Assembly (NCBI GenBank): GCA_015066205.1
Contig: SVOV01000004.1
Coordinates: 30,852 to 94,851 of the forward strand
DNA length: 64,000 nucleotides
Direction of reading: 5' to 3'
DNA from: Oscillospiraceae bacterium
Lineage (GTDB): Bacteria; Bacillota; Clostridia; Oscillospirales; Acutalibacteraceae
Within the stretch, counting starts at the first letter, position 1; each line of letters opens with the position of its first letter. Under the pieces are notes generated by a model. The model saw only the letters and a list, made by a program, of their open reading frames with translations, was not told the origin of the DNA and did not search any database. Shown piece by piece: positions 34,954 to 46,164 of the stretch. Position numbers and translations under genes: made by a program.

Positions 34954-34984
34954 GAAAAAAATCAGCACCGAAAAACCGGTGCTG
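34954..34984 (-). terminator. Intrinsic terminator ending the acyl-CoA ligase/VOR/ilvE operon
   Basis: Minus strand: CAGCACCG/CGGTGCTG stem followed by a run of seven T residues. Lies 5 nt after the ilvE stop. Confidence 0.85.
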
Positions 34985-34989
34985 AAAAC

Positions 34990-36051
34990 TTATACTCTGT
35001 AGGTCCAGCCTTTTTTATCCTCAAGTCTTCCCCACTGAATTCCCGTAAGAGTTTCATAGAGATGACCTGTCAGCGAACCGATCTCGTTATTGTTAATAAC
35101 ATATTCCCTGCCGTTAAAGACCAGCTTTCCGATGGGGGAAACAACAGCAGCGGTTCCGCAACCGAAAGCCTCCTCAAGCTCACCGTTTTCGAGGGCTTCA
35201 ATTATTTCATCAACACTGATCCTTCGCTCTTCTACCTCATAATTCTCATCGCGCAGCAATTCAATTATCGAGCGTCTTGTTATGCCGGGAAGAACCGTTC
35301 CTATAAGATCGGGAGTAACTATTCTGCCCGATATTTTGAACATAACATTCATAGAACCGACTTCTTCAATGTATCTTCGTTCAACACCGTCGAGCCACAA
35401 AACCTGAGAAAAACCAAGTTTTTCCGCTCTTTCACCTGCTCTTGTGCTTGCGGCATAATTTCCTCCGCATTTTGCATAACCCGTTCCGCCTTTTACAGCT
35501 CTTACATCCTCGGTCTCTATCATAATGGAAACGGGGGCAATACCCTCTTTATAATAACTGCCGCTGGGAGAAGCTATTATTATAAATGATGCTTCGTTGA
35601 TACCGTGAAGACCGAGATTAGGCTCAGTTGCTATCATAAACGGACGGATATATAAAGATGTACCGTCTTTATGAGGAACGAAATCCTGTTCAAGCCGTAC
35701 AAACTCTTCGAGAGCCTGCATAGCATCTTTTTCATCAAGCAAGGGCAGACAAAGGCGTTCGGCAGAAGCATTCATTCTTCTTATATTGTCAACAGGTCGG
35801 AACATTCTGACTGTTCCGTCAGCACCGCGATAGGCTTTAAGCCCCTCAAAAACCTCAGCTCCGTAGTGCAGAACCACTGCAGCAGGATGAAGAGCAAGAG
35901 GTCCGAAAGGTACAATTCTTGCATCGTGCCATCCCTGAGTCTTATTGAAATCCATAATAAACATATGGTCCGTGTATGTCAGTCCGAAGCCGAGACTCTC
36001 TTCATCGGGCTTCTGAGACGGTGCGGGATTTTTAATTATTTTTATATCCAA
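34990..36051 (-). CDS. ilvE: Branched-chain amino acid aminotransferase (class IV, long form)
   Basis: 353 aa. Contains TDHMF, EVFEGLKAYR, the catalytic-Lys region GGTGYAKCGGNYAAS, and GITRRSIIEL. Confidence 0.93.
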   Translation of the reverse strand: MDIKIIKNPAPSQKPDEESLGFGLTYTDHMFIMDFNKTQGWHDARIVPFGPLALHPAAVVLHYGAEVFEGLKAYRGADGTVRMFRPVDNIRRMNASAERLCLPLLDEKDAMQALEEFVRLEQDFVPHKDGTSLYIRPFMIATEPNLGLHGINEASFIIIASPSGSYYKEGIAPVSIMIETEDVRAVKGGTGYAKCGGNYAASTRAGERAEKLGFSQVLWLDGVERRYIEEVGSMNVMFKISGRIVTPDLIGTVLPGITRRSIIELLRDENYEVEERRISVDEIIEALENGELEEAFGCGTAAVVSPIGKLVFNGREYVINNNEIGSLTGHLYETLTGIQWGRLEDKKGWTYRV

Positions 36052-36066
36052 ATGTACTCACACCTT

Positions 36067-36603
36067 TTACAAAGAAAATCCGAGCTCAATAGCATCAAGA
36101 TTGAATTTAAGCATATCCTGATGGCGGGCGGAGATAACCTTATTGAGTGCGGCTTCAAGGTTATCTGAGCCGATTTCGGGAATCTCCTTTATGACCTTAC
36201 CCGTAATTATCATATTGGCAAGAGTCTTCAGATTCTTTTCGTTTGCAAGGCCCGATGCGGGCACATAGAAGACCTCAACATCGGTTCTTTCTACCTTTCT
36301 TCCGATAAGAGTAGAATCAACGAAAATTTTTCCGCCGGGAACAACTGCATTTTCGTATTTGTCAAGGGACGGAAGATTCATTGCAATAAGCACATCGGGC
36401 TTATCAACTATGGGAGAGCCGATGGGTGTATCGCTCAAAATAACGGAGCAGTTTGCCGTACCGCCTCTCATTTCGGGGCCGTATGAAGGAAGCCAGCTTA
36501 CCTGCTTGCCCTCAATAAGACCCTTATATGCGAGGAATTTTCCCGCAAAGAGGATACCCTGACCGCCGAAGCCTGCAAAAAGCATATTAACAGTAGCCAT
36601 CAT
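36067..36603 (-). CDS. 2-oxoacid:ferredoxin oxidoreductase, gamma subunit
   Basis: [15 protein letters not shown] motif. Size, and a 4-nt overlap with the beta subunit gene, also fit. Confidence 0.88.
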
Positions 36604-44438: not shown

Positions 44439-45841
44439 TATCTGTTCTCCTCAAAAGCGATTTTGTTAAGAGCATTAAGATAAGCCTTTATACTTGCACC
44501 TATAACATCGGTGGAAAGACCGCTGCCCGAATAAAGCTTTCCCGAATCGGAGCGAAGCTTTACAAGAGCCTGACCCATAGCCTCTCTGCCCTCGGTAACG
44601 GACTGGATCTGGAAATCATCAAGCTCAAAATGATGTCCGACAACCTGTTCTATAGCAAGAAATGCCGCATCAATGGGACCGTCGCCGACATAAACACCGG
44701 TAAGAGTCTTTTTGTCCTTTTCAATACAGAGATTAGCGGTTGCGGTAATGATATTACCTGCATTTATTACATAGCTTTTAAGTTTGTAGGTTGACGGAAC
44801 CTGCATTGCGGCAGAAGCGATAATTGCCTCAAGCTCCTTTGTTCCGATATATTCCTTGTTTTCGCAGAGCTTTACGAATTCCTCATATACCTTTGCGCTG
44901 TCCTCGTGGCTCAGCTCATAGCCTATTTTTTGAACTGCGGCGGCAACGGTTGAATAATCGTCATTCTTATGAAGCTCTATCTCCTCGTCACTTCTGACAA
45001 CACCGTCATAGGGAGATTCCTTTTCTGTGTCCTTTGAAACGATGGCAGAGAGCTTTTCACATACATTTTTGAGAGTAGCTGTTTTGATTCCCGTTGTAAC
45101 GCCCAGCTTTTCACCCTTTACAAACAGGAAAGCAGAAATATTTTCGATTTTAAGATAGCCTGAATCAAAAACAGTAGTCTTGATGCCTGTTGCTCCGTTT
45201 TTAACAGCTGCAGCGGCACAGGCTGTTGACATATTTATTTCATCTGAAATATCTACGATAACATCCTTTTTATCTATACCGTCACAGTTTTCATAAATAT
45301 CTTTAATAAAGGCTGAAAATTCCTCTGCATCGGCACATCCTGCGTCATCGGAAAGAGATATGATGTCAGCACCGGCTTTTATTGCGGTATTAATTGCTTT
45401 ATATAAGAATTCCTTTTCGGCTCTTGAAGCATCAAGAGCTGAAAACTCAACCTTTTCACAAAGAGTCTTGCACATTGTCACAAGCTCTTCTATTCTCTCA
45501 AGCATTTTTGCGGGCTTAAGAGAGCTTATATATTCCATTCCTGCAGGAGAAACGGGAACAGCTACACTGAGAATACCCTTTTTTGCATCCTTCATACAAG
45601 AAGCGGCGCACTGTACGGATTCTTTTGTAAGACCTACAGGAACGCTGACTGCACTCTTTTCAATCACACTTACTATGTTTTTTATAAGCAGAGTGTCTGT
45701 TTTTTCGTTTTTTATTGCGGGAAGCTCAATTATATCAACACCAAGCTTATCAAGCTGCTTAGCTGTTTCTGTTTTTTCTCTGAAGCTCAAAGGTGTTTTC
45801 AATACTGTAAGTGTCTTGTCTGTAATAAGAATCTTTTTCAT
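44438..45841 (-). CDS. 2-isopropylmalate/citramalate synthase-like protein with degenerate catalytic motifs and an intact LeuA-dimer (regulatory) domain
   Basis: HMGL-like fold, but DTTLRDGEQ is replaced by TDKTLTVLKT and HxH(N)D by VDISDEINMS. The C-terminal GDGPIDAAFLAIE...VTEGREAMGQALV...SGSGLSTDVIGASIKAYLNALNK is typical of the LeuA_dimer domain. TAATG overlap with the downstream gene. Confidence 0.75.
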   Translation of the reverse strand: MKKILITDKTLTVLKTPLSFREKTETAKQLDKLGVDIIELPAIKNEKTDTLLIKNIVSVIEKSAVSVPVGLTKESVQCAASCMKDAKKGILSVAVPVSPAGMEYISSLKPAKMLERIEELVTMCKTLCEKVEFSALDASRAEKEFLYKAINTAIKAGADIISLSDDAGCADAEEFSAFIKDIYENCDGIDKKDVIVDISDEINMSTACAAAAVKNGATGIKTTVFDSGYLKIENISAFLFVKGEKLGVTTGIKTATLKNVCEKLSAIVSKDTEKESPYDGVVRSDEEIELHKNDDYSTVAAAVQKIGYELSHEDSAKVYEEFVKLCENKEYIGTKELEAIIASAAMQVPSTYKLKSYVINAGNIITATANLCIEKDKKTLTGVYVGDGPIDAAFLAIEQVVGHHFELDDFQIQSVTEGREAMGQALVKLRSDSGKLYSGSGLSTDVIGASIKAYLNALNKIAFEENR

Positions 45842-46129
45842 TTCTACCTGCTCCTTAAAAAAATAAGTCCCTGAAACTAAATGTTTCAGGGACGATAAAT
45901 ATACCGCGGTACCACCCTAATTGCTGATTTTTCAGCCGCTTGTAAAGCTCTTTCAAGCCCTTGACCGTGATAACGGGGTCTGCCGCAATTCCCTATAAAC
46001 CCAACGGCGTTGAGGAACCGTGCTCCGATACGAGACAGACCGTAAACTCCGCTGCCGTCTTACACCATCCGACGGCTCTCTGTAAGCTACCATAAACGGT
46101 CTTAATATCATCACTGCATTTATAATGTT
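45842..46129 (-). promoter_or_regulatory. T-box riboswitch leader, specifier read as CUC (Leu)
   Basis: Minus strand elements: K-turn (UGC AGUGAU GAUA ... UAUC GGA GCA), AG bulge AGAGAG, distal loop AUGGUGUAA, F-box CCGUUA, canonical T-box AAUUAGGGUGGUACCGCGG (complement of 45901-45923). Terminator at 45857-45893 (11-bp stem plus T7), then AAGGAG RBS. CUC followed by G lies at complement of 46031-46034, in the same position relative to the K-turn as AUC-A in the other leader. Confidence 0.8.
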
Positions 46130-46135
46130 AAATGC

Positions 46136-46164
46136 AGTATACTAAAAATAAGCCTTTAAGTCAA
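46136..46164 (-). promoter_or_regulatory. Sigma-70 type promoter TTGACT-17-TATACT for the Leu T-box operon
   Basis: -35 at complement of 46159-46164, -10 at complement of 46136-46141, 17-nt spacer. The -10/+1 region overlaps a perfect 10-bp inverted repeat (46113-46122 / 46129-46138). Confidence 0.65.

Follow-up and report, generated by a model that had tools for sequence, protein, structure and literature searches.

T-box leaders respond to uncharged tRNA and are read through under starvation. The amino-acid supply operons controlled in this way include ilv-leu operons, aminoacyl-tRNA synthetase genes and transporters. Fibre-degrading Clostridia of the rumen and gut need or benefit from the branched short-chain acids (isoacids) isobutyrate, 2-methylbutyrate and isovalerate; this requirement has been known since the 1960s, and isoacids are fed to dairy cattle. 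Allison and co-workers are said to have labelled branched-chain amino acids (BCAA) from isoacids in rumen anaerobes, and an anabolic 2-oxoacid:ferredoxin oxidoreductase of the VOR type (hereafter VOR) is present in methanogens. For rumen cultures it has long been established that isovalerate is converted to leucine, 2-methylbutyrate to isoleucine and isobutyrate to valine, in the sequence acid, acyl-CoA, 2-oxoacid and amino acid (PMC7356843). The rumen labelling work concerned isotope flow and enzyme activity; genes, regulation and dedicated ligases were not defined there, and in the literature that we searched we found neither the genes and regulation for the incorporation of isoacids into amino acids nor a paper that ties this work to the genes described here. 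Here we describe a minus-strand gene cluster at positions 34952-46164 of a 64,000-nucleotide stretch of DNA (the window) from an Oscillospiraceae bacterium (assembly GCA_015066205.1, contig SVOV01000004.1, positions 30,852 to 94,851). Judged from its sequence, the cluster is probably a salvage module that makes isoleucine and leucine from 2-methylbutyrate and isovalerate, by the chemistry proposed for the rumen cultures.

The cluster begins with promoter P1 and a T-box for Leu, which are followed by the gene of a LeuA-like pseudoenzyme and the gene of a TIM barrel-ligase fusion; then come promoter P2, a T-box for Ile, the genes of a helix-turn-helix (HTH)-cupin-ligase, a P-loop NTPase and VOR, ilvE and a terminator. 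Neighbouring genes share 1-4 nt or leave no more than 15 nt between them: the LeuA-like and TIM-ligase genes overlap by 1 nt, the VOR genes by 4 nt, and the gap between VOR gamma and ilvE is 15 nt. The original prediction, made from the letters of the window, had given this gene order, these gaps and overlaps, a promoter before each leader and a strong terminator after ilvE, all of which was borne out by the open reading frame, Pfam and NCBIfam analyses and by consensus and terminator scans. In the proposed scheme an AMP-forming ligase would convert the branched acid into acyl-CoA, the four-subunit VOR would form the 2-oxoacid from acyl-CoA, CO2 and reduced ferredoxin (reductive carboxylation) and IlvE would transaminate the 2-oxoacid to the amino acid. 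Uncharged tRNA-Leu (CUC) would allow readthrough into the LeuA-like and TIM-ligase genes, and uncharged tRNA-Ile (AUC) into the genes of the HTH-cupin-ligase, the NTPase, VOR and IlvE. The sequences themselves show the T-boxes with their specifiers, the domains, the conserved gene order and the strict match of ligase type and specifier; which acids are used, that VOR runs reductively and that starvation induces the genes is what we infer. The leader architecture, the uncharged-tRNA logic and the supply purpose are those of the known T-box supply operons. However, acid-CoA ligases and a ferredoxin-dependent oxidoreductase stand here in the place of genes for de novo synthesis, charging or uptake, and each cluster has two to three T-boxes of differing specificity, with the shared enzymes behind the last one only.

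Both leaders were compared with the T-box model RF00230 (gathering score 93 bits), and specifiers were read from the cmscan alignments. Leader 1 (45885-46123, minus strand) scores 106.8 bits (E 1.3e-22), which is over the gathering score; leader 2 (41629-41870, minus strand) reaches 88.7 bits, slightly under it, yet with an E value of 6.8e-20 (local scan), and its orthologues in the related loci L011, L002, L013 and L031 score 95-98 bits, over the gathering score. The Stem I specifier position, located immediately 5' of the basal helix, reads CUC followed by G in leader 1 and AUC followed by A in leader 2, in agreement with the pattern of codon plus purine, so that the two T-boxes claimed by the original prediction, with CUC and AUC as specifiers, hold as leaders for Leu and Ile. 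The Leu specifier was verified with cmscan in the orthologues of leader 1 in L018, L011, L031 and L002. The T-box sequence with the UGGN bulge is present in both leaders (AGGGUGGUACCGCG, UGAGUGGUACCGCG). The terminator of leader 1 with its U-run lies at 45857-45893 (hairpin 45893-45867, 11 bp, z-score -4.46) and that of leader 2 at 41601-41640 (hairpin 41640-41611, 12 bp, z-score -3.49), both on the minus strand; together with its T-run, each overlaps the 3' strand of the antiterminator, and terminator and antiterminator are mutually exclusive structures. No tRNA genes were found within the 64-kb window.

Each leader is preceded by a promoter of the sigma-70 type on the same strand. P1 (46136-46164; TTGACT-17-TATACT) has 10 of 12 consensus positions in the consensus scan, and its end lies 13 nt from where the T-box model begins to match; P2 (41875-41903; TTGACA-17-TATTAT) has 11 of 12 and carries a TG extension (extended -10). 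A comparison of leaders (67 for Ile, 51 for Val and 29 for Leu) showed strong extended -10 promoters with A-tract, UP-like elements in their promoter regions, and no conserved palindrome that could serve as an operator for the HTH domain was found there. The operon terminator, a 10-bp stem with 6 GC pairs followed by a T-run, was located by the terminator scan at 34952-34985 (minus strand; hairpin 34985-34962).

The strongest argument for the proposed pathway is the strict pairing of ligase type and specifier in relatives. A scan for the HTH-cupin-ligase in one genome per species gave at least 598 candidate stretches, of which at least 591 encode a relative of this protein, and the 80 best loci were compared in detail. 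The hosts are mostly Oscillospirales, Acutalibacteraceae and Christensenellaceae from gut and rumen, represented by metagenome-assembled genomes. Among the loci with enough downstream sequence, 40 of 44 have the P-loop gene and the genes of VOR alpha, beta and gamma after the ligase, and 33 of 39 have ilvE. The pair of LeuA-like and TIM-ligase genes adjoins the cluster in various positions, i.e., upstream, downstream or divergent, and its own promoter and T-box precede each ligase unit. Two HTH-cupin-ligase genes stand in tandem in 57 of 70 loci, and the second one has a T-box for Val (GUA or GUC) in L003, L011 (L011:4692-7264), L018 and about 54 other loci. The window and its closest relatives L070 (94%) and L001 (90%) have a single HTH-cupin-ligase gene, and L002 is also without a second; the genome of the window retains the channels for Ile and Leu only, and in its clade the Val channel was apparently lost or had never been acquired.

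The specifier column was read from group-wise MAFFT alignments anchored on cmscan-validated references, which were used instead of an earlier regular-expression read-out that gave no clear or only a noisy specifier for about 20% of leaders. The specifier is AUC (Ile) in all 69 leaders of window-type ligases, GUA or GUC (Val) in all 51 leaders of the second paralogue and CUC or CUG (Leu) in all 29 leaders of the LeuA-like/TIM-ligase unit. Since this pairing has no exception, the design of the family is therefore one of three ligases, one per branched-chain amino acid, around a shared VOR and IlvE, and a route that starts from 2-methylbutyrate, isobutyrate and isovalerate predicts just such units for Ile, Val and Leu. 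The arrangement is no product of chance: dozens of species repeat both its synteny and its specifier identities. The presence of ilvE is variable even among close relatives, since in L001 (L001:14978-17069), which is 90% identical, an M20 peptidase gene comes directly after VOR gamma and ilvE is missing from that place. In 6 of the 80 loci a CN-hydrolase gene adjoins ilvE (L049:15540-16325, L066, L061, L071, L055 and L079); its best NCBIfam match, below cut-off, is the YafV-type (omega-amidase-like) amidohydrolase, and in five of these six loci the adjacent ilvE is more divergent (43-47% identity). The two genes may form a glutamine transaminase/omega-amidase couple, which is compatible with a biosynthetic transamination driven by glutamine.

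The ligase of the Ile unit (39307-41580, minus strand; Pfam HTH_19, Cupin_2 and AMP-binding) is an AMP-forming acyl-CoA synthetase of the Macs/MbcS type with an XRE-type HTH and a cupin domain, and is a candidate 2-methylbutyrate-CoA ligase. Its closest described relatives, MacsMa of Methanosarcina acetivorans (MA4008; PDB 3ETC) and MbcS of Staphylococcus aureus, are AMP-forming and act on small alpha-branched acids, as is proposed for the window ligase. The preferred substrate of MacsMa is 2-methylbutyrate, and the rule that Gly replaces the gatekeeper Trp of Acs was given for this enzyme group (PMC10455477). With MacsMa the ligase domain shares 53% identity over 515 aa (650 bits), the Gly in place of the gatekeeper Trp, the identical EGFGQTET and the same GWGK motif. 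The window protein differs from MacsMa and MbcS in an N-terminal XRE-HTH and cupin extension of about 240 residues, in its T-box and in its VOR and IlvE neighbours; MbcS feeds lipid synthesis, whereas the window ligase sits with VOR and IlvE. It was shown that S. aureus MbcS activates 2-methylbutyrate and isobutyrate and handles isovalerate poorly (PMC10026030), and this preference fits in with the Leu unit having a ligase of another class. By analogy, the division of the family matches one in which ligases of the Macs/MbcS type would serve the alpha-branched acids (Ile, Val) and a different subfamily would serve the Leu unit.

When 81 Ile-type proteins were compared with 52 Val-type proteins, similarity in the ligase domain was nearly as high between the types (73.9%) as within the Ile type (78.0%). 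The types are distinguished by 12 positions (at least 90% conserved in each type), of which 11 lie in the HTH-cupin-linker part and one in the ligase. This sole difference in the ligase domain is residue 462, directly after the Trp of the motif D-T-G-W-x-K: it is Gly (GW-G-K) in 81 of 81 Ile-type proteins and in MacsMa, and Ala (GW-A-K) in 52 of 52 Val-type proteins. This switch may hint indirectly at which of 2-methylbutyrate and isobutyrate is preferred. If, as presumed, the residues after this Trp line the acyl pocket of acetyl-CoA synthetase, the extra methyl group of Ala462 would suit a substrate smaller by one carbon.

Four consecutive overlapping minus-strand genes encode, according to Pfam, a full set of VOR subunits: delta, a ferredoxin-like protein with 2x[4Fe-4S] (38425-38649; Fer4_7, Fer4), alpha (37358-38428; POR_N, PFOR_II), thiamine pyrophosphate-binding beta (36600-37361; TPP_enzyme_C) and gamma (36067-36603; POR). 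The alpha subunit passes the cut-off of the VorB subfamily NF005507 (541.9 bits, cut-off 399), and no curated NCBIfam cut-off is reached by beta, gamma and delta. We infer that this VOR acts on branched 2-oxoacids or, in reverse, on branched acyl-CoA and CO2. IlvE (34990-36051, minus strand), a branched-chain amino acid aminotransferase of type II with a class IV aminotransferase domain, passes the equivalog cut-offs of NF009897 (468.6/307 bits) and TIGR01123 (394.2/250 bits). The route from isoacids to Ile and Leu that the original prediction had put forward is thus supported by the specifiers, by the VorB and aminotransferase cut-offs, by the identity with MacsMa and by the pairing in relatives. 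No canonical BCAA genes (ilvBNCD/leuABCD) lie in the 64-kb window, which does not cover the whole genome.

Between the ligase and VOR genes lies a gene of a P-loop protein of 218 aa (38646-39302, minus strand), which has weak Pfam matches to CbiA, ParA and SRP54 and whose homologues form at least 8000 clusters named "MinD/ParA" or "hypothetical". Its AlphaFold model (pLDDT 84.7) has the SIMIBI NTPase fold, and among solved folds SRP GTPases come closest to it (TM about 0.57), with 14-22% identity in the listed matches. It shares the fold, Walker A and B and the layout of a small dimer-type protein with the SIMIBI NTPases SRP54/FtsY, MinD/ParA, Mrp/ApbC and HypB. However, the Walker A motif GHYGSGKTN, invariant in 40 homologues, is without the lysine of the deviant MinD/ParA motif KGGxGK[ST], there is no conserved Cys, and the protein has invariant motifs of its own, including NxYRPLT and NNSN. 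According to the model, this protein is a SIMIBI NTPase of a new kind, without close relative. An iron-sulphur ATPase of the NifH/Mrp type was considered and rejected, as no Cys is conserved and the nearest folds are SRP GTPases. It is our guess that the NTPase assists the assembly or function of VOR.

The first protein of the Leu unit (44438-45841, minus strand) has the layout of LeuA and CimA, i.e., an HMGL-like TIM barrel, here degenerate (109.8 bits in Pfam), and a C-terminal LeuA_dimer domain (104.9 bits), and it aligns across the full barrel with the solved LeuAs in PDB. Conservation is high in the GDGPIDA loop and throughout the rest of the regulatory domain, and the C-terminal LeuA_dimer is the best-conserved part of the protein. 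Its best score against the LeuA equivalogs is 266.9 bits and does not reach their cut-offs (532-748). Where the LeuAs in PDB have DTTLRDGEQ and HCH(D/N)D, the window protein has DKTLTVLKT and ISDE, and RDGEQ and HxH, which include metal-ligand and substrate-binding residues, are missing in 29 of 29 orthologues. Unlike LeuA and CimA, it is also translationally coupled to a ligase. The LeuA-like gene named by the original prediction is therefore confirmed in its HMGL-like and LeuA_dimer domains but not in its catalytic motifs; going by these residues, the product is a conserved pseudoenzyme that cannot be a Claisen-condensing synthase. We rejected the idea that the protein supplies a de novo branch as a true LeuA or CimA, since the catalytic motifs are absent in all orthologues. 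In LeuA and CimA it is through LeuA_dimer, an allosteric module, that BCAA are bound, and one may therefore speculate that the dead LeuA senses leucine through this retained domain on behalf of the coupled Leu ligase.

The second protein of the Leu unit (41940-44438, minus strand; Pfam AP_endonuc_2, AMP-binding and AMP-binding_C) consists of an AMP-forming acyl-CoA ligase (about 280-832) to which a xylose-isomerase-like TIM barrel (residues 1 to about 270) is fused, and is a candidate isovalerate-CoA ligase. It is invariably paired with the LeuA-like gene behind the Leu T-box. The TIM domain scores 46.9 bits against PF01261 (gathering score 31.1), is far less conserved than the ligase domain and has as profile matches in PDB MJ1311, D-tagatose 3-epimerase and IolI, which place it in the ketose-epimerase/isomerase type. 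Of the presumed ligand positions of the Glu-Asp-His-Glu metal site, the acidic ones align (IETDG, INDAAD, IEW) and the His of DIGH is replaced (WNMYA). Stand-alone TIM barrel genes lie between the Ile and Val ligase units in two related loci (L026:12285-13232 and L016:12281-13228), and their products are distantly homologous to the fused TIM domain (hhalign probability 96.7%).

One may ask whether the Leu unit activates isovalerate at all. With the Ile unit acting as proposed, the Leu unit might handle another leucine precursor that is isomerised or epimerised by the TIM domain, or might be mainly regulatory. The isomerase-type barrel with its kept acidic metal-ligand positions and the stand-alone homologue within the cluster in L016 and L026 speak for such a role; moreover, the ligase is of a different subfamily that has no characterised close relative, and plain isovalerate activation needs neither a LeuA homologue nor a TIM domain. 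We nevertheless consider it unlikely, as the Leu specifier is invariant (29/29), the unit constantly adjoins the VOR/IlvE cluster and, with MbcS-type enzymes being poor on isovalerate, it is economical to assume another class of ligase for the beta-branched acid.

It is quite unlikely that, as the main rival reading has it, the module supplies primers for branched lipids: a cell short of BCAA would be unable to derive branched acyl-CoA primers from them, T-box-induced ligases would capture external branched acids for FabH and amino acids would be secondary or absent products. This view draws on MbcS, which is the best NCBIfam match of the Ile-unit ligase and has a role in lipid priming in S. 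aureus (PMC10026030), and on four loci (L034, L036, L045 and L063) in which an Ile-type HTH-cupin-ligase behind its T-box was found with neither VOR nor ilvE in the locus (tblastn). However, primer supply needs neither the VOR that accompanies the ligase in 40 of 44 loci nor the IlvE present in 33 of 39, and three amino-acid-specific switches are hard to justify for a primer pool alone. Lipid priming and amino-acid synthesis may also coexist.

A catabolic role, i.e., Stickland or fermentative oxidation of BCAA in which IlvE deaminates, VOR decarboxylates oxidatively and the acyl-CoA is turned into the acid, is very improbable even though VOR-type enzymes and IlvE are reversible and catabolic in many anaerobes, since T-box readthrough occurs on uncharged tRNA, i.e., under starvation, AMP-forming ligases cannot conserve ATP toward the acid and neither Ptb/Buk nor an ADP-forming synthetase was found in the cluster with Pfam and NCBIfam. 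Assimilation of isoacids is favoured because consuming BCAA would be maladaptive in the very starvation in which the leaders are read through, because AMP-forming ligases are committed to acid activation and because the design provides one ligase per amino acid. Fermenters that make acids use ATP-conserving ADP-forming synthetases or Ptb/Buk (PMC3942289).

Several observations weigh against the synthesis of both Ile and Leu from isoacids by this module. The MbcS match of the Ile-unit ligase reaches 431.8 bits against an equivalog cut-off of 850, which makes the protein a relative and no equivalog, and the ligase of the fusion scores 695 bits against PRK12583, below the cut-off of 832; with both scores below threshold, substrates are assigned by analogy. 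There may be an overlap in substrates between the Ile and Val ligases, since most of the positions that distinguish them sit in the HTH-cupin part. The four lone-ligase loci belong here too, and the TIM barrel, the dead LeuA and the P-loop NTPase are not needed by the three-step scheme. The original prediction had the two ligases separately licensed by Leu and Ile starvation, which stands as far as the specifiers CUC and AUC are concerned but does not extend to the shared enzymes, for VOR and IlvE are placed behind the Ile T-box alone. The Leu channel would hence depend on leaky or coincident expression of VOR and IlvE. The window sequence contains no terminator between the TIM-ligase gene and P2, so that transcripts from P1 would also meet the Ile terminator. 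Most relatives have the Val T-box in the proximal place instead.

The gene module itself, the T-box control of a salvage route by ligase, VOR and transaminase, the three-channel architecture and the accessory proteins seem to be new: no description of a T-box-controlled ligase-VOR-IlvE module was found in the full-text literature, a search that did not extend to subscription journals (e.g., T-box regulon surveys). The chemistry, from rumen labelling, and the T-box control of amino-acid supply genes are already known. The module would give a genetic basis to a nutritional requirement of about 60 years' standing and a widespread genetic marker (at least 591 species), in which the T-box specifier labels the amino acid served by each ligase. 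It provides a handle on isoacid dependence and cross-feeding from genomes and metatranscriptomes, extends the range of T-box-controlled functions and brings to light three conserved proteins, i.e., the LeuA pseudoenzyme, the TIM-ligase fusion and the SIMIBI NTPase. It also leads to testable predictions on ligase specificity, a G462A switch, tRNA-dependent readthrough and label flow.

A bolder version of isoacid salvage is possible, though doubtful: the cluster might be a dedicated "reverse VOR" machine that senses amino acids at two levels, with transcription set by the T-boxes (one for each amino acid) and flux by enzyme-borne sensors, and that could not do without the SIMIBI NTPase for assembling or energising VOR. 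The HTH and cupin domains could be counted among such sensors, with 11 of the 12 positions that separate the Ile from the Val type lying in them; speculatively, they may have an amino-acid-specific role for the Ile and Val ligases comparable to that of the supposed LeuA sensor. If this version is true, the presence of the module predicts isoacid dependence across Oscillospirales and Christensenellales.

The proteins of the cluster are identical to MBE6789969-76, which are annotated at NCBI as cupin domain-containing protein, AMP-dependent synthetase, hypothetical protein (the LeuA-like and P-loop proteins) and 2-oxoacid:ferredoxin oxidoreductase subunit. Immediately downstream of the cluster lies a gene of an M20 family peptidase/deacylase (33444-34904), which has its own promoter (34953-34925) and an N-terminal hydrophobic segment in its product, and an M20 peptidase gene also neighbours the cluster in L001. 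Just upstream of P1 there is an open reading frame of 310 aa (46254-47186), without a Pfam match and 83-85% conserved in L001 and L070, after which comes a thioredoxin gene (47199-47510). Further genes encode a protein of 2298 aa with MBG and YDG domains (47859-54755) and a dockerin type I protein (32356-33399), which suggests a cellulosome-bearing, fibre-attached lifestyle of the source organism; the dockerin protein and the large surface proteins near the cluster would suit an organism like Ruminococcus that lives on fibre. A ketopantoate reductase (PanE/ApbA) gene is found 20 kb from the cluster (13171-14196); pantothenate synthesis also uses 2-oxoisovalerate, a possible VOR product. As for the lone-ligase loci in other genomes, three are labelled Christensenellaceae and L034 comes from an uncultured Clostridiales; in L036 the ligase has neighbours that are unrelated by Pfam (ACPS, GNAT, esterase and UvrC). 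In L013 (L013:1-1433) three tRNA genes and a Gut-1 RNA (RF01706, 59.8 bits) are located upstream of the cluster.

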